NCBI GenBank assembly: GCA_016840165.1
Contig: JAEOSU010000023.1
Location: 1-35,979 of the forward strand
Length of the DNA: 35,979 nt
Origin: Promethearchaeota archaeon
GTDB lineage: Archaea > Asgardarchaeota > Lokiarchaeia > Sigyniarchaeales > SOKP01
Reading direction: 5' to 3'
The translations under genes were made by a program, and so were the position numbers. This document shows positions 12,596 to 18,681 of the stretch, piece by piece; positions within the stretch are counted from its first letter, which is position 1, and every line of letters starts with the position of its first letter. The notes under the pieces were generated by a model. The model did not search any database, was not told the origin of the DNA, and was given only the letters and a program-made list of their open reading frames with translations.

Positions 12596-13324
12596 ATGTC
12601 ATTTTTTTGTAAAGTTCAAGATAGGAATATACCACTCGTTTCTGTGGGTACGTCTACGTTTATTGGAGCTGGACAATTTGGAAAAAATGCTCGAGTTTAT
12701 CGCAAAAAGTTTCTCAATAATTCTGATGCGATATTAGAAATCCTTGAAGCTTGCTATCAAATTGGAGGGCGTGGAATTGAAGTTATACCCGCGGGTAAAA
12801 TATCCGAAGCTATTAAAATCTTTAGAGAAGCCCATAACGATTTTGTAGTGACAGGTTCAACATTTCCAGGCTCTGATCCACTCATTGATGATCTCGTTGA
12901 AATGAATGCCCAAATAATCTTTGTCCATGCTTCAGTTTCCGATCAGAAGAATGAACGACTCACACGAATATTAGACGAAGTTTCTTCGCGAGGAGTCATT
13001 CCAGGTATGGCTGTCCATAATCCAGTTTCCACTCTAAATTATGCTTTCGAAAACTTGCCAGAAATCAAGACATTTCTCATACCATTCAATGCTAAAGGAA
13101 TCTTTATGGGAAATCAGAAAGAAGTTGAAAATTTGGTTGATTCCCATAAGGACTGTGCATTTATGGCTATGAAGACCTTAGGTGCTGGAAAAATAGACCC
13201 AGAAATTGCTTATGCATATATAGCAAAGCATAATATTCGTTGTGCGACTATTGGAATGGTGAGTATTGAAGAGGTTAATATAACAACTAAATATGCGTTA
13301 AAAGGACTTAATAGGGGAAATTAA
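12596..13324 (+). CDS. Hypothetical TIM-barrel / aldo-keto-reductase-like protein
   Basis: GTSTFIGAGQFG, LIPFN and AMKTLGAG resemble archaeal AKR-like uncharacterised proteins. Confidence 0.6.
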   Translation: MSFFCKVQDRNIPLVSVGTSTFIGAGQFGKNARVYRKKFLNNSDAILEILEACYQIGGRGIEVIPAGKISEAIKIFREAHNDFVVTGSTFPGSDPLIDDLVEMNAQIIFVHASVSDQKNERLTRILDEVSSRGVIPGMAVHNPVSTLNYAFENLPEIKTFLIPFNAKGIFMGNQKEVENLVDSHKDCAFMAMKTLGAGKIDPEIAYAYIAKHNIRCATIGMVSIEEVNITTKYALKGLNRGN

Positions 13325-13493
13325 TAACACGATTAATACTTATCATTATTACTGTATTTTTCTAAAACTATGAACAGCATTGATTAATTGTTATTGATTT
13401 ATCATCACTCCTTATTACCAATAACAAAGCTTATAAGATTATTTTGGTTATTGGGTTATGAAATTATGAAAAACTTATAAAAATCTGAGTATC

Positions 13494-13685
13494 ATGAATC
13501 ACAGCAAAGACATTTTATTTTTTCTAATAATTATATGTTCAATAATGGGATTCGCTTCAATATTATTTGTTAATGGTATTGTATCATGAGGAGATAGGCA
13601 AAGAGGTTTTGATGTATCATTTGGTGTAATATCTATTATTGTTGCTTTCTTACTTGTAATATATTTTCAATTGGAAAGAAAATGA
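13494..13685 (+). CDS. Small two-TM membrane protein with in-frame TGA (candidate selenoprotein or pseudogene)
   Basis: Manual translation: MNHSKDILFFLIIICSIMGFASILFVNGIVS[TGA 13587-9]GDRQRGFDVSFGVISIIVAFLLVIYFQLERK[TGA]. Missed by the ORF track. Confidence 0.45.
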
Positions 13686-13706
13686 GTAATCTTAAAACTA
13701 ATATAG

Positions 13707-13742
13707 ATGATTCCTACGAGAAAATGGTAGTCATAGGATGAT
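13707..13742 (+). ncRNA. SECIS-like hairpin (AUGA...AAAA...UGA kink-turn-type core)
   Basis: AUGAU-UCCUACGAG-AAAA-UGGUAG-UCAUAGGA-UGAU. UCCUA/UAGGA and GA/UC pair above a UGAU/UGAU quartet. Lies 21 nt after the TGA-containing ORF. Confidence 0.4.
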
Positions 13743-13840
13743 AATCCTTGCAAAGGATAATATTATTAAGAGAATTGGTTAAGATTTCATCTTATTATAA
13801 CTTAGGGTTCCTTAAAAAAAAAGAAATTTAAAAAACAAGA

Positions 13841-15799
13841 TTATTCTTTAACATCTGCTAATTCTGAGAATAATATTTTAAATTCAGATTGTTTTCTGTA
13901 AAATACTGGAGGTTGTCCTAGTGGAGCCTCAACTTCAATCCAGCCATGTTCATATTCTTTTCCTGACCAGAGATGTATCCATGCATCATCTGGTAAATAG
14001 ACATTCCAATTATCAATTCCTGGTTTAATCACGGGTGCAACTAATAAATCTTGACCGAGCATAAATTGATATTTCAGATGATATAGTTCCTGATCACTTA
14101 CGTAATGCATAAAACATCCTCTCATTGGAGGGATGCCATACTCTTGATACTCATTAGAAAGATGCTTCAAATAAGGAGTTAAATAAAGATGAATTCTAAC
14201 CATTTTTGATAAGTGATCAAGCGTCTCATCGTCGGTATCAAACTGCCAATTCGCATCAGGGCGATTTCCTTCATGAGTGCGCATAAACGTAGAAAAAGTG
14301 GCAATCTCTGCGGATCTCATAAAAAGTTCTTTGGATCTTGTATAATTTCTATAGGTTGTATAGCATCCGATATCAAAATGATAATATCCAATTCCACACA
14401 AGCCCATATTAATACTTGAGGGAATTACTGAGGGAAGTCCTAATTTTTTATCCCAATCAACTCGCTGATCTCCCGAGAAGTGCATCATAGTATATTTTGA
14501 AGAGTGTGTAAAACCAGAGCGAGTGAAAAACATTACCTTATCGAGCAGGTTCTCTTCTTTAACTGCTTCAAAATTGAGTTTATTCCATAATGTTGGAGAT
14601 AAGTTATGAAATTCTTCTCCTGATACTCCTGAATTTAATAAAGCATCGACAGGAACATACTCGCCATAATCTACCATCCACCCATTCATACCGATACCAA
14701 TCATATTTTTCTTAATTATGGATTTAATCCAATCGACCGCATCTGGGTTAGAAAAATCAAGTTGTGCTGCGGGAAAATCCGTCATCATAACCAGATAGTC
14801 CTCTCCCTTATCATTTTTGATGCAATATCCCTTTTTTGATGCTTCTTTGTAAAGATCTCCTTCAATTGCAAGCATAGTATTGATGTATCCCATGAATTTA
14901 ATTCCTTTTGAATTTAACTTTTTAATATACTCGGGGAGATTAGGATATATTTTTTCATCATATTTCCAATCCCAGAATAATTGTTTTCCAAAAGAAGTAT
15001 ATCTTATACCTTCCCAATCTTGACACCAAACGCCCCCAACTTTAATATCATGTTTTAGTGCGGTTTCGATTTTTTTATCTACAATTTCAGGTCCTCCTTG
15101 AACTCCGAGCCATATTCCATCATAGATCCACTCTGGTGGCTTTGGTTGCAATCCGAGATATTTATTAAGCTTTTTGACTGTATCTAAAAATGTTTCGCAC
15201 TTTTCAAAATAAATTTGAGTTGGTATGCTCCAAATATATAATTCATTTTTATTATGCTCGGTGAAATCAAACTCAGAATAAGCATTAGTATCCACATGAC
15301 AGTAATAATTATACGATGATATAAAATTAGGTTGAGGATAATAAGTATGACTAGATCTTGTTGGAGGAGACGCATCTTCCACCCATATTGATATCATTTT
15401 GCCCTTTAAATTTAATTCTGAGAATTGTTCTCCACATCCAAATATAGCCTCATCTTCATCTGATTCTAATTTCACCCAAAAACGATTGATGGTTTTATCC
15501 TCACATTTAGGAGTAATGATTAGTTTATTTTCTTGAATATAAAATTCTATTACTATTGAATATTCATTATAACTAAATTCAATTATAATTTGATTATCCA
15601 ATTGAGATAAGATCTTAAAATCTTGAAGAGAAATCCTTTTTTTTAATTTGTCTTGTATATTAAAGGAAGAATGGTTTTGCTTAAATTTCCCAGTTCCGAT
15701 CCCCATTTCAAAACAAGGATTTTTTTTGGTATGAGAAAATACTTTATACTCCCTATAATAGATATTAAATCCTTCATCAATCGATTCTAATCGAATCAT
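13841..15799 (-). CDS. yihQ: Sulfoquinovosidase (GH31, YihQ/SftG-like)
   Basis: WLGVQGG, WCQDWEGIRYTSFGK..FWDW, WMVDYGE (nucleophile Asp), GDQ (acid/base), GCYTT and MRTHEGNRP. ATG 15799 forms an ATGA overlap with the isomerase stop. Confidence 0.88.
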   Translation of the reverse strand: MIRLESIDEGFNIYYREYKVFSHTKKNPCFEMGIGTGKFKQNHSSFNIQDKLKKRISLQDFKILSQLDNQIIIEFSYNEYSIVIEFYIQENKLIITPKCEDKTINRFWVKLESDEDEAIFGCGEQFSELNLKGKMISIWVEDASPPTRSSHTYYPQPNFISSYNYYCHVDTNAYSEFDFTEHNKNELYIWSIPTQIYFEKCETFLDTVKKLNKYLGLQPKPPEWIYDGIWLGVQGGPEIVDKKIETALKHDIKVGGVWCQDWEGIRYTSFGKQLFWDWKYDEKIYPNLPEYIKKLNSKGIKFMGYINTMLAIEGDLYKEASKKGYCIKNDKGEDYLVMMTDFPAAQLDFSNPDAVDWIKSIIKKNMIGIGMNGWMVDYGEYVPVDALLNSGVSGEEFHNLSPTLWNKLNFEAVKEENLLDKVMFFTRSGFTHSSKYTMMHFSGDQRVDWDKKLGLPSVIPSSINMGLCGIGYYHFDIGCYTTYRNYTRSKELFMRSAEIATFSTFMRTHEGNRPDANWQFDTDDETLDHLSKMVRIHLYLTPYLKHLSNEYQEYGIPPMRGCFMHYVSDQELYHLKYQFMLGQDLLVAPVIKPGIDNWNVYLPDDAWIHLWSGKEYEHGWIEVEAPLGQPPVFYRKQSEFKILFSELADVKE

Positions 15800-17112
15800 T
15801 TGATTACTTTCCACCCCTTAATTTTTGCGAAAATCTCAAATGGTCTAATAAAATCACCATAAACCACAGAAATATGATGGGCAATTCCGTTTTGAATTAT
15901 TTTATTTAAGACTTCTCTTACATGATCTTGAAATTCTACTTTCACATAGGTGCCTTTTAACTCCTTTTCCATAGGGATACCCTCTGCTTTTTGAAGAAAT
16001 AAACGATATTCGCCAGGGGTGTAATCTATTCTCAACATTGAGAGATCTCCTGGCTTCATTACGAAATCTGCCGTCACTCCTTTTCCTCCAGCAAAATAGG
16101 TATCAAGTGATCTGTTGCATACTCCATCCCAAAGATTACAAGCTGCAACTCCACAATGCCATAATAATCCAAAATCCTCGTTAAAATCTACCTGGGAAAA
16201 GTCAGATAAAAAGGGATTTTTGCCTCCTATTGCTTGATGAGCTAACATTGAAAGAGATCCTAAAATGTCTCCTTCACAGGTTAAAATTTTATTTTCCATT
16301 TGTAAGAATGACATTGCTGCACAGGGTGAAATTCCATAATTATTCGCAAATTCAGGCCAACATCGTATTGCAAGCGCATCAAGTTGGTTTTGTTCCAAAA
16401 ATTTCTCAAACTTAGCTGTCAAAGAGGCTACCAGATTCAATTGTTCCTCACTTATTCCTGATACATCGAAAATAGTTTGGATTTGTTCCCTTCTTTCATT
16501 TACTTGAACATGATTGACTTCTAATGAGAAGACTTCATTCAACTCGTAATGATCAATAAGAATTCCTAACTCTCGATAAAGATCTAACTCATCAACATCC
16601 AAATTAAGAAACCCTTTCGCTCGATAGCCAATAATACCTATATGACTCGAAGAAAATACCTTAAGTATTCGAATTGCATCAAGCCAGTCAACATCAATCT
16701 CTTTTCCTATAACCACATGATAATTTTTAACCCCTGCTTTATAGAGATTACTGGAATTTAAGTTGATTCCACATACCGAGTTAAGCCGTATTTTTCCACC
16801 ATCATATGGTAATTCCTCTAAACCCCACAATAAAATTGGTCTTTGAATTTTCTTATTCAATTCCAATATCAGATGGCCTAATGCAAAAGTTCCACTAATA
16901 CAGACTAACGCATCGACTTGTTTTGCTGTTAGATAAGCAGCTGCCTGCTGAGCTTCATTAATTTCAATTACCAAATGATCTATAAAATGCCACTCGACTT
17001 TTTCGATCTTTTTTAGATCATTTTTGATTTGAAAATAAATCTCTTCTGCTGCTTTATAATCAAAAGTTTTACGTGCAACACAAACTACACCTACTTTAAT
17101 TTCTTGTTTCAT
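15796..17112 (-). CDS. L-fucose/L-arabinose isomerase family protein; likely sulfoquinovose isomerase (SftI/SqvD-like)
   Basis: SGTFALG, RLNSVCG, AIRCWPEF, CEGD, LWHCG and IAHH motifs. RBS AGGAGG. Operon context. Confidence 0.82.
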   Translation of the reverse strand: MKQEIKVGVVCVARKTFDYKAAEEIYFQIKNDLKKIEKVEWHFIDHLVIEINEAQQAAAYLTAKQVDALVCISGTFALGHLILELNKKIQRPILLWGLEELPYDGGKIRLNSVCGINLNSSNLYKAGVKNYHVVIGKEIDVDWLDAIRILKVFSSSHIGIIGYRAKGFLNLDVDELDLYRELGILIDHYELNEVFSLEVNHVQVNERREQIQTIFDVSGISEEQLNLVASLTAKFEKFLEQNQLDALAIRCWPEFANNYGISPCAAMSFLQMENKILTCEGDILGSLSMLAHQAIGGKNPFLSDFSQVDFNEDFGLLWHCGVAACNLWDGVCNRSLDTYFAGGKGVTADFVMKPGDLSMLRIDYTPGEYRLFLQKAEGIPMEKELKGTYVKVEFQDHVREVLNKIIQNGIAHHISVVYGDFIRPFEIFAKIKGWKVIK

Positions 17113-17995
17113 TATTGAATCCTCCTATTTCTTTTTCTAAAACTTTAATTGTAGCAGAAAAATCTTCATCGGCATACTTATCAATACCATTATTATACAC
17201 ATCTAATACTCTCTTAGCGCCTGGTAAATCTAATCCTAACTTCTGAGCAAACTCGATGATCAAGTGCATGTCTTTATGCATGTTACGAAAGGAGAATTTT
17301 GGGGTGAAATCTCGTTTTTTAATGCTTTTTGCTTTTACATCCAAATAAAAATTTTGTCCTCCTCCCGCTGCAATTCCAGGAGCAATCTTATCATATTCAA
17401 TGCCTGCAACTTTTGCCATGAGAATCATCTCGTTGACTCCATTTTGTATATTTCCAACGAGCATATTATGGCACATCTTCATAGCTAAACCCTTGCCATT
17501 CTCCCCAAAATATATTATTTCCTCTCTCTTCCCCATATATTCTAATATTGGCTTAATCTTCTGAAATGTATCGAAATTTCCTCCAACATAAATACCTAAA
17601 TTACCGGCAATTGCGGCAGCTTGACTTTTCACTACAGGAACGTCCATCATGGTACTTCCAGCTTCCCTGACTTTCTCTGCCAATTCCATGGATAATGATG
17701 GAGAGATGGTACTCATATCGATATATATCGTCCCCTTTTTCATAATGGGAAGAAGCCCATTCACTACTTCTTTTACATTCTCATTTGTTGGGACCATGCT
17801 AATAATTATATTACAGAAATTTGCAACTTCTTCTAAGGTTTCGCAATTTATCGCTCCTTCACTAACCAATTTATCAATTTGCTTTTTATTAATATCGAAT
17901 ACATAGACTGAACAGTTTCCCTTCTTTATAATATTGCGACACATATGCTCTCCCATCGTCCCAAGCCCAATAAAGCCAATTTTCAATGATTCCAT
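17096..17995 (-). CDS. Beta-hydroxyacid dehydrogenase family; likely NADH-dependent sulfolactaldehyde reductase (YihU/SftR-like)
   Basis: IGFIGLGTMG, DMSTISP, DVPVVKS and KMCHNML. RBS AGGTGA precedes ATG 17995. Confidence 0.8.
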   Translation of the reverse strand: MESLKIGFIGLGTMGEHMCRNIIKKGNCSVYVFDINKKQIDKLVSEGAINCETLEEVANFCNIIISMVPTNENVKEVVNGLLPIMKKGTIYIDMSTISPSLSMELAEKVREAGSTMMDVPVVKSQAAAIAGNLGIYVGGNFDTFQKIKPILEYMGKREEIIYFGENGKGLAMKMCHNMLVGNIQNGVNEMILMAKVAGIEYDKIAPGIAAGGGQNFYLDVKAKSIKKRDFTPKFSFRNMHKDMHLIIEFAQKLGLDLPGAKRVLDVYNNGIDKYADEDFSATIKVLEKEIGGFNNETRN

Positions 17996-18006
17996 TACTA
18001 TCACCT

Positions 18007-18681
18007 TTATAGGGAACCTAGTTCCGTATCATCCCAGGCATCTTGGAAGATTTTTAATCCTTTATCAGTAAAAGGATGCTCAAAACTACTTTTATATACT
18101 TCGAATCCCGCGGTTACAATATCTGCTCCCATTATCGCAGCCTCAACTATCTGCTTGCCGTTCCTTACAGCAGCAATTATTATTTCAGTGTCAAAATCAT
18201 AATTACGATACATTGAGACAATATCTGACATCAATTGAGTACAATCCACCCCAGATGCTTCTTGCCATCCGATAAATGGCGAGCAGTAAGTAGCACCTAA
18301 TCTCCCTGCTTGTAAAGCCTGCGAAGCAGTAAAAACTAAGGTTACATTTACTTTAATTGAAGCTTCAGTAAGCTTTTTTGTTGCTATTAATCCTTTTTCA
18401 TTACAAGGAATTTTAATTACGAAATTATGAGATAGTTGAGCGATCTTCTTAGCTTGTTCTATCATTTCTTCAGCTTTGGTAAGGTGCGGATCGATTTCAA
18501 CTGAGATTGGGAATTCTATGTCATCAAATTCACTAGCAAATTCTTTAATTACCGAAAAAAACGGTTTCCCTGAATTTTTTACATGTTTAGGATTCGAGGT
18601 GACTCCATTAATCTTCCAATTTTCCAATGCATATTTTATCTCATCTATTTTAGCACTATCTAAAAAATATTTCATCTTCAT
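18007..18681 (-). CDS. Transaldolase/FSA family; likely sulfofructose transaldolase (SftT/SqvA-like)
   Basis: MKYFLDSA, GVTSNPKH..SGKPF, FPISVEI, FVIKIPC (Schiff-base Lys), SPFIGW (Trp where generic transaldolases have Arg) and AAVRNGKQIV. Confidence 0.88.
   Translation of the reverse strand: MKMKYFLDSAKIDEIKYALENWKINGVTSNPKHVKNSGKPFFSVIKEFASEFDDIEFPISVEIDPHLTKAEEMIEQAKKIAQLSHNFVIKIPCNEKGLIATKKLTEASIKVNVTLVFTASQALQAGRLGATYCSPFIGWQEASGVDCTQLMSDIVSMYRNYDFDTEIIIAAVRNGKQIVEAAIMGADIVTAGFEVYKSSFEHPFTDKGLKIFQDAWDDTELGSL

Follow-up and report, generated by a model that had tools for sequence, protein, structure and literature searches.

Identification of a Small ORF between Two Convergent Genes

The window analysed here is a stretch of 35,979 nucleotides of lokiarchaeal DNA, and it corresponds to contig C103 of a 3.6-Mb assembly with a G+C content of 31.6%. 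Between a plus-strand gene and the 3' end of a minus-strand GH31 gene there is a gap of 516 bp (13325–13840), which appears empty but actually contains a 62-codon ORF and a downstream hairpin (Table 1). The opposite strand of the gap has no ORF of 30 codons or more. Direct repeats flanking the gap were looked for and none were found, so no insertion mechanism can be proposed. A comparison of the window with Rfam gave no family match, and ARAGORN found no tRNA in it.

Starting from ATG13494, the reading frame runs through 31 sense codons to a TGA (13587), through another 30 sense codons to a second TGA (13683), and after six further codons it reaches a TAG (13704). The ORF translates as MNHSKDILFFLIIICSIMGFASILFVNGIVS-UGA-GDRQRGFDVSFGVISIIVAFLLVIYFQLERK-UGA. 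An initial annotation, made from the sequence, had described it as a hidden ORF with two hydrophobic helices joined by a loop with an in-frame TGA, and its coordinates were confirmed. The same is true for the in-frame stops that were listed downstream of another ATG, ATG13458, namely the TGAs at 13467, 13587, and 13683 followed by TAG 13704. It is very unlikely that this upstream ATG serves as the start codon. ATG13494 was assigned as the start because TGA 13467 is the fourth codon after ATG13458, counting the latter as the first, and because the homologues and database relatives begin at the position of ATG13494. A tryptic peptide of the window protein, GFDVSFGVISIIVAFLLVIYFQLER, can arise by read-through of the UGA only.

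TGA13683 aligns with the stop codons of the homologues, which are TAA or TAG, and it is situated only 21 nt upstream of the hairpin. It may be either the true terminator or a second, partly used selenocysteine (Sec) site. Upstream of the ORF, the letters of the BRE/TATA-like sequence AACAAAGC-TTATAA are present as claimed earlier, and this sequence is a possible promoter of the small ORF. The promoter region is AT-rich, and the homologues have no alignable promoter.

Table 1. Positions of the genes, codons, and RNA elements in and around the gap (window coordinates)
Feature	Position	Strand	Description and basis
Left flanking gene	12596..13324	+	242 codons
BRE/TATA-like motif AACAAAGC-TTATAA	13423..13436	+	sequence present; ~58 nt upstream of ATG13494
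Predicted small membrane selenoprotein CDS	13494..13685	+	62 sense codons including Sec32, plus terminator; ORF list and aligned homologues
UGA codon 32, predicted Sec	13587..13589	+	motif [A/S]-U-G closing helix 1; column conservation
Second in-frame TGA (13683-85), tail VILKLI, and TAG (13704-06)	13683..13706	+	homologues have TAA/TAG there
Whole SECIS domain	13694..13768	+	covariance model R2; encloses core and mini-hairpin by lower stem
Core lokiSECIS (type I eSECIS-like)	13707..13741	+	published layout, pattern scan, covariance model, family covariation
3' mini-hairpin AUCCUU-GCA-AAGGAU (AUCCUUGCAAAGGAU)	13744..13758	+	present in 20/20 aligned family elements
GH31 gene, 3' end towards the gap	13841..15814	-	657 codons

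The Downstream Hairpin Has the Layout of a lokiSECIS

The lokiSECIS consists of AUGA, a 9-bp stem, an 11-nt loop, and then GA (or AA); in the loop, A is preferred at the first five bases, and the last base is G, usually with A before it (Mariotti et al. 2016, PMC4989117). The hairpin in the window has the same 4+9+11+9+2 layout, with AUGA (13707–13710), UUCCUACGA (13711–13719), the loop GAAAAUGGUAG (13720–13730), UCAUAGGAU (13731–13739), and GA (13740–13741). AUGA is directly 5' and GA directly 3' of a stem of nine positions. The apical loop of 11 nt begins with G, has A at four of its first five bases, and ends in AG. The element is in the 3' UTR near the end of a CDS with an in-frame UGA; AUGA begins 21 nt past TGA13683, directly after TAG13704, and 120 nt past the predicted Sec UGA. 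The SECIS-like hairpin proposed in the initial annotation thus stood with respect to the position of AUGA and the presence of the core, but its register needed a small correction.

The element also agrees with the definition of a type I eSECIS-like structure, which has a GA_[G/A]A core, an upper stem of 7–15 bp with at most two mismatches, and an apical loop of 8–20 nt (Huang 2024, PMC11227280). Here the core is GA_GA, two of the nine pairs are non-standard, and the loop has 11 nt. The remaining seven pairs are standard. The first non-standard pair is a U.U adjoining the core, which is common to 19 of the 20 elements of the family described below. The second is a C.A mismatch (C13717.A13733) that had been raised earlier as a caveat. 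It is real and specific to the window copy, where a single U-to-C change has replaced the U-A pair that is found in 18 of the 20 elements.

The core is followed by a 3' mini-hairpin, and a comparable short hairpin is found 3' of most known SECIS elements in the same genome. The lower stem that encloses both is formed by approximately 13699–13704 with 13760–13765; its register is shifted in the window copy and was placed by eye. The minimum free energy fold has a z-score of -2.4. That the AUGA...UGAU motif belongs to a C/D-box sRNA was considered and rejected by eye, as there is no RUGAUGA or CUGA box.

A strict pattern of the lokiSECIS layout gave 13 matches in the 3.6-Mb genome versus two in reversed-sequence controls, and the hairpin at 13707–13741 therefore exceeds chance. 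The other matches include elements situated 3' of PrxL (UxxU), four VhuD genes, VhuU, and two one-helix ORFs with the motif ..G-U-GC... Of the rest, one follows an ORF with ..GC-U-U.., and two or three are probably false positives.

Covariance Models Link the Hairpin to Known SECIS Elements

Two covariance models were used, and the element of the window was excluded from both. Model R1 was built from five SECIS elements of PrxL, VhuU, and VhuD genes in the genome of the window; five rather than six sequences were included because one VhuD SECIS was misaligned by MAFFT. When R1 was run on the 36-kb window, a check that the initial annotation had suggested, the highest-scoring match was at 13704–13744 (23.1 bits, E = 0.01), followed by one of 14.1 bits. 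Genome-wide the result is borderline, with the candidate at rank 9 and an E value of ~1, for a narrow five-sequence model and 150 of 8826 candidates scored. A bona fide VhuD element (C9) is not among the 13 matches listed for R1, all of at least 18.7 bits, again with 150 of 8826 candidates scored. Taken alone, the R1 score is suggestive of a SECIS but not conclusive.

Model R2 was built from the elements downstream of 15 homologues. It matches the window at 13694–13768 over its full length (1–76) with 63.5 bits (E = 4.8e-14), and everything else in the window has an E value of at least 0.28. R2 also recognises the known SECIS elements of VhuD (55.4, 44.8, 34.0, and 16.7 bits), PrxL (49.5 bits), and VhuU (20.1 bits), which indicates that the small ORFs use the same signal class as established selenoprotein genes. 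The element of the window and those of PrxL, VhuD, and VhuU of the same genome are mutually recognised by covariance models, clearly with R2 and at a borderline genome-wide score with R1.

The same RNA is present 3' of each family gene or gene pair. Twenty of these elements align nearly gap-free, and the family RNA can be drawn with a lower stem, an upper stem of nine positions, and the 3' mini-hairpin (AUCCCCGCAAGGGAU) as its three helices. Compensatory changes are present in 12 of the 18 pairs, and 86.8% of the cells are paired. None of 500 shuffles reached the observed values, and slid controls were paired in 34–56% of cells. Of the four pairs counted in the mini-hairpin, two have changed in a compensatory way, and pairing holds for 96% of the cells. 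The lower stem covaries in the relatives (CCGAG/CUCGG, CUUGAG/CUCAAG). The copy in genome G020 lacks three bases in the 5' strand of the core and could be defective.

The Genome Encodes a Sec Machinery

Components of the Sec machinery were found in the genome of the window, a check for which the initial annotation had named selA, selB, and tRNA-Sec. They comprise SepSecS (371 bits), a SelB-type factor (246 bits), a SelD gene that itself contains an in-frame TGA (..KIHG-U-SCK..), and a tRNA-Sec. A direct search of the genome for tRNA-Sec with RF01852 and ARAGORN gave no match, and the gene was found by BLAST with the copy of a relative (G003) on contig C63, at ~16360–16485 of the minus strand. 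It contains two insertions that look like introns. The tRNA-Sec gene adjoins SepSecS, and in relatives too it is directly upstream of SepSecS. TGA closes 15.5% of the open frames of at least 300 codons, and it is therefore an ordinary stop codon in this genome and not reassigned. SepSecS was found in 129 of 135 genomes of the taxonomic family, so Sec use is general in this family, and the predicted small membrane selenoprotein gene is carried in a patchy manner.

The In-frame TGA Is Conserved in a Family of Small ORFs

When the whole 516-bp gap was compared with 40 relatives at the nucleotide level, only the hairpin part was conserved. The match in G020 has 84% identity over 13710–13758 of the window, and upstream of it there is a 62-codon ORF whose codon 32 is TGA and which encodes two hydrophobic helices. 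A 15-nt pattern taken from the 3' arm revealed more copies, in a second genus. A protein profile of the family, made with stops read through, recognises the ORF of the window with an E value of 1.5e-15 and one TGA inside. In the order it gave 39 matches in 26 of 154 genomes, and 34 of these have an in-frame TGA. All carriers at the order level belong to two genera of one family, and no members were found in 266 further genomes of the phylum. With a tenfold stricter E value of 1e-6, a search of 400 phylum genomes was likewise positive in two genera of one family only (7 of 42 and 12 of 54 genomes), and TGA is present in 28 of the 30 matches.

In an alignment of 25 sequences, the columns of Met-1 and Sec are the only ones with a conservation of at least 90%, and the Sec column is TGA in 23 of the 25. 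The residue before it is Ala or Ser in 22 members, and Gly follows in 20. Three or four copies are non-Sec at this main site, and they have Gly, Met, or, in a distant copy, Leu. No Cys was found at the main site in the 400 phylum genomes or in a search of 5.8 billion proteins, and no Trp (TGG) among the homologues checked on DNA. The question of which residue the homologues carry, posed at the outset, was thus answered by an in-frame TGA in 34 of 39, with neither TGG nor Cys at the main site in any copy verified on DNA.

The search of 5.8 billion proteins gave only four relatives, three of them from short ENA contigs. The three ENA relatives, known from protein records alone, carry Trp where the DNA-verified homologues have TGA. 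Two of these three, P0002 and P0003, share 87% and 81% identity with the protein of the window, were called through both TGAs, and have the tail VILKLI or VNLKLI. We interpret the Trp residues in the protein records as the probable result of table-4 gene calling on AT-rich fragments. The fourth relative is an NCBI "hypothetical protein" from a metagenome-assembled genome labelled Candidatus Hermodarchaeota, and it is identical to a non-Sec copy of genome G098. No relative turned up when JGI metagenome contigs were scanned with a single protein.

These data bear on the idea that the locus is a pseudogene with a TGG-to-TGA change, a caveat of the initial annotation, or a chance ORF next to a chance hairpin in an AT-rich spacer. 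Hydrophobic ORFs arise readily in AT-rich DNA, but no codon of the family is better conserved than TGA in the two genera, and the homologues checked on DNA have no TGG there. The 516-bp gap is missing in the closest relative and the intergenic DNA shows no overall conservation in the 40 relatives, but the covariation of the RNA is far above both controls and the SECIS pattern occurs 13 times against twice. As the ORF, the TGA, and the RNA are conserved, the pseudogene idea is contradicted, and we regard an origin by decay of a Trp codon or by chance as hardly credible.

Codons Downstream of the UGA Are under Purifying Selection in One Genus

Three orthologous pairs of genomes G098 and G106 were compared over the codons past the UGA. 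The dN/dS values are 0.05, 0.43, and 0.05, with dS between 0.3 and 1.6. These low values indicate that the post-UGA codons are translated. Within the window's own genus, the subgroup of G138, G008, G134, and G002 has a dN/dS of 0.3–1.2 on either side of the UGA, so that either the constraint may be weak or the estimates noisy. Sequence change is fast in this subgroup, where conservation is limited to the frame, the pattern of hydrophobic residues, and the turn motif, and the case for the window's own subgroup is weaker for it.

One G098 paralog has a second TGA, situated in helix 2, which aligns with TGT (Cys) in G106. On the aligned codons, this pair reads as a classical Sec/Cys exchange. All other bona fide family ORFs that were compared end in TAA or TAG, and the window copy ends in TGA. 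With TGA accounting for 15.5% of the terminators among long frames, the TAA and TAG terminators would fit an avoidance of UGA as a stop in SECIS-bearing mRNAs.

It is conceivable that the gene is real but that its UGA terminates translation, giving a one-helix peptide of 31 residues, or is read by a near-cognate tRNA to give a Trp or Cys protein, the RNA being conserved for another reason. Such a reading would have to account for purifying selection on the post-UGA codons in G098 and G106, for ~40 copies in which the frame stays open and the second hydrophobic helix is retained, for a downstream RNA of the same class as that found 3' of PrxL, VhuD, and VhuU, and for the avoidance of TGA terminators together with the apparent exchange of TGA and TGT at the second site. 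In its favour are the failure to find a Cys homologue at the main site and the database relatives that are written with Trp. We consider it very improbable.

Predicted Fold and Membrane Topology

The structure predicted by AlphaFold2 on the family alignment consists of a helix (residues 3–30), a turn (residues 31–36, S-U-G-D-R-Q), and a second helix (residues 37–62), with a mean pLDDT of 80.3. Across the family, the totals of Lys and Arg are 61 for the N termini, 60 for the C termini, and 16 for the loop. Both ends are rich in these residues and the loop is depleted, which by the positive-inside rule would place both ends in the cytoplasm. The [A/S]-Sec-Gly turn would consequently be situated at the outer face of the membrane.

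The window protein has no match in Pfam. Weak matches to Phage_holin_3_6 occur in six relatives (best E = 0.002), and these were taken as compositional. A protein atlas search with P0002 gave generic helical hairpins only, all below 0.9. As to function, we can offer a guess that falls somewhat short of even chances, namely that the protein carries a selenol at the outer surface of the membrane, which would be redox-active or bind soft metals or chalcogens. Dimerisation may be involved, or, in some paralogs, a Cys or Sec of helix 2. The absence of a Cys form suggests a chemistry that cannot be replaced by Cys; alternatively, it could reflect a rapid turnover of the family.

The Gene Is an Accessory Element

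In the closest relative, G007, the flanking genes are 82% and 80% identical to those of the window, and they are separated by just 24 bp. No family member was found elsewhere in the 98%-complete genome of G007. The syntenic site is uninformative in other relatives, where the GH31 neighbour is missing. The absence of the cassette between the same convergent genes in G007 indicates that the ~500-bp cassette is accessory and was gained or lost recently. Other genomes contain the gene in arrays, of six or seven paralogs in G098 and four in G106, and some adjacent ORF pairs in relatives have a single SECIS, which follows the second ORF. The gene is thus accessory, being missing at the site of the closest relative, patchy in two genera, and often tandem-amplified. 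The gene neighbours vary by subfamily and include a PPIase with an RHH/NikR-like gene, a STAND NTPase, and an amidohydrolase. Across the subfamilies the neighbourhoods are inconsistent and give no functional lead.

The family may be real and the window copy nevertheless decaying or inefficiently decoded. In that case it would be an accessory gene of recent acquisition, in which the SECIS has weakened and the terminator is TGA. Its upper stem has the C.A mismatch where 18 of 20 relatives have U-A, and R1 gives its element just 23.1 bits; however, the R2 score of 63.5 bits exceeds that of every proven SECIS of the same genome, and the bona fide VhuD SECIS (C9) is below the window element with both R1 and R2. 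The terminator is TGA where the other compared family ORFs have TAA or TAG, the same-genus subgroup shows weak selective constraint, and the gene is absent at the site in G007. On the other hand, the frame is intact on either side of the UGA, and relatives of 81–87% identity retain the ORF in full, along with both special codons, according to their protein records. On balance, a copy in decay seems unlikely, and a functional gene with a decoded UGA is the preferred reading for the window as well.

Discussion

The results indicate that the plus strand at 13494–13685 very probably contains a genuine unannotated gene, which would encode a membrane protein of 62 residues folded as a helical hairpin, with the UGA at codon 32 decoded as Sec. 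The proposal of the initial annotation, an undescribed small membrane selenoprotein, is supported by the TGA of the homologues, the covariation of the RNA, and the presence of the Sec machinery. The checks that it had listed as possible refutations were carried out, and none of them spoke against the proposal. According to the mechanism that we propose, the 3' UTR of the mRNA would bear a SECIS of the eukaryote-like Lokiarchaeal type (core 13707–13741, domain ~13694–13768). Given what is known of Sec decoding and the elements present here, the SECIS would recruit the Sec-specific elongation factor with Sec-tRNA(Sec), and the UGA 120 nt upstream of it would be read as Sec and not as a stop.

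In Lokiarchaeota, lokiSECIS elements have been described for VhuU, HdrA-VhuD, and PrxL (Mariotti et al. 2016, PMC4989117). The window gene resembles these in its 3'-UTR layout, in the position of the SECIS soon after the stop codon, and in the short extra 3' hairpin. The use of one SECIS for a tandem pair, as seen in some relatives of the window gene, is shared with HdrA-VhuD. The protein itself is different, as it is an unrelated two-helix membrane protein of 62 residues with no Pfam match, no CxxU/UxxC redox box, and no Cys homologue at the Sec site. The number of families has been given as five (Mariotti 2016, PMC4989117), as seven for Asgard archaea (Huang 2024, PMC11227280), and as 11 for archaea (2026 review, PMC13188914). 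All families in those surveys are soluble redox or selenium-metabolism enzymes that were found by homology, either with selenoproteins already known or with Cys forms of these (PMC4989117, PMC11227280, PMC13188914). The two-helix family is not in the lists of these three publications (PMC4989117, PMC11227280, PMC13188914), nor in a paper of 2024 on Asgard genomes in which selenoproteins are reported. Within the surveyed literature, the two-helix membrane selenoprotein is therefore a new protein family, decoded by a known mechanism.

The same genome also contains ORFs of the form TM...GGG-U-G-C with one helix (C37:3243 and C82:26143). Like the window protein, their products are tiny, unannotated membrane proteins in which Sec is followed by Gly, and they use the same SECIS class. 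In these proteins, however, Sec is situated ~15–20 residues past the single helix, in a Gly-rich stretch that is followed by a Cys, whereas in the window family Sec is placed at the turn between two helices. An hhalign comparison of the two gave a probability of 2.6%, with only the N-terminal helix aligned. On this basis the two are treated here as separate families.

SelK and SelS are short membrane-anchored selenoproteins of eukaryotes that are decoded via a kink-turn SECIS in the 3' UTR. They are single-pass proteins of the endoplasmic reticulum, with Sec near the C terminus of a disordered cytosolic tail. The window protein shares with them a short membrane-anchored chain and a 3'-UTR SECIS, which is a resemblance of layout only; its Sec is in a tight turn between two helices at the predicted outer face. 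No sequence similarity to SelK or SelS was detected with Pfam or in the protein atlas search. To our knowledge, small membrane-anchored selenoproteins of such a layout have so far been regarded as a eukaryotic feature.

Cys-containing homologues exist for most selenoprotein families. As none was found for the two-helix family at the Sec site, it would be missed by homology searches that rely on Cys forms. With Sec at a predicted extracytoplasmic turn, the membrane-embedded protein would be a new setting for archaeal Sec chemistry. Searching for the SECIS first reveals such families, which have no Cys relatives and are cut at the UGA by gene callers. In Asgard genomes, such genes escape the annotation pipelines or, when they lie on short AT-rich contigs, seem to be translated with TGA as Trp. 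In addition, the ~20 further natural lokiSECIS variants, with their covariation, lower stem, and 3' mini-hairpin, can be used to refine the structural model of the element, whose type is regarded as ancestral to the SECIS of eukaryotes.

The broader interpretation has, in our judgement, an even chance of being correct. It holds that this is a founding family of Sec-obligate proteins with no Cys form anywhere, consisting of two-helix micro-proteins that would display a selenol on the outer side of the membrane in Lokiarchaeia and that are encoded in tandem arrays with a shared SECIS. If this is true, there are two consequences. Together with the other small membrane selenoproteins of this genome, the family would bring the Asgard selenoproteome substantially above the seven catalogued families. 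Small membrane-anchored selenoproteins, moreover, would already have been present in the archaeal relatives of eukaryotes.

Arrangement and Variation of the Two-helix Sec Genes

The two-helix Sec gene occurs in tandem arrays in two related genomes, with four paralogs on G106:C70 (locus L073) and six to seven on G098:C17 (L072/L112). Some neighboring ORFs in these arrays are spaced by only about 36–57 nt, and these pairs carry a single SECIS 3' of the second ORF. The HdrA-VhuD pair is similarly arranged, with one SECIS per ORF pair.

In the L126 copy, which is followed by a SECIS-like element, all three in-frame TGAs fall within the turn (..LQL-U-G-U-GG-U-YYR..). In the copies L082 and L072:2411–2605, Sec is replaced by Gly or Met, and the codon may have been lost recently. 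Three database relatives on short ENA contigs (P0002, P0003, and P0004) have a tryptophan in the public gene calls where DNA-verified homologues carry TGA; this is probably the result of translation table 4 having been picked for short AT-rich contigs.

The "PAIIC[Y/F]" subfamily (L075, L074, L128, L129, and L132; genus g22) adjoins a gene for a PPIC-type peptidyl-prolyl isomerase of 119 aa as well as a ribbon-helix-helix gene, whose 138-aa product shows a weak match to the NikR C-terminal domain, below the Pfam cut-off.

Features of the source genome (G000), the window, and related genomes
Feature	Location	Strand	Remark
tRNA-Sec gene (L003)	G000:C63, about 16360–16485	-	upstream of SepSecS
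SepSecS gene	G000:C63:14952–16109		downstream of tRNA-Sec
SECIS-like match	G000:C19:32038–32078	-	R1 35.5 bits
SECIS-like match	G000:C30:143841–143892	+	R1 23.3 bits
SECIS pattern match	G000:C54:283099	-	3' of ORF with ..GC-U-U..
GH31 gene	window, within 13841–18681	-	convergent neighbor of the window's two-helix Sec gene
Family member (L126)	G140:C121:12485–12697	-	three in-frame TGAs
Family member (L082)	G087:C22:124906–125094		no Sec codon, downstream SECIS kept
Family member	L072:2411–2605	-	no Sec codon, downstream SECIS kept

Selenocysteine Decoding in the Source Genome

The tRNA-Sec gene of the source genome was detected by neither Rfam nor ARAGORN, because it is split by what appear, from sequence comparison, to be two insertions. 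Relative to the intact tRNA-Sec gene of G003 (RF01852 score of 63.9 bits), one insertion of about 31 nt follows base 16–17, and the other lies in the T arm and measures about 30 nt.

Beyond the known selenoprotein genes, the source genome contains two further matches to R1, the covariance model built from five of its own SECIS elements, and one to the strict lokiSECIS layout. These matches on C19, C30, and C54 may mark additional unlisted selenoprotein genes.
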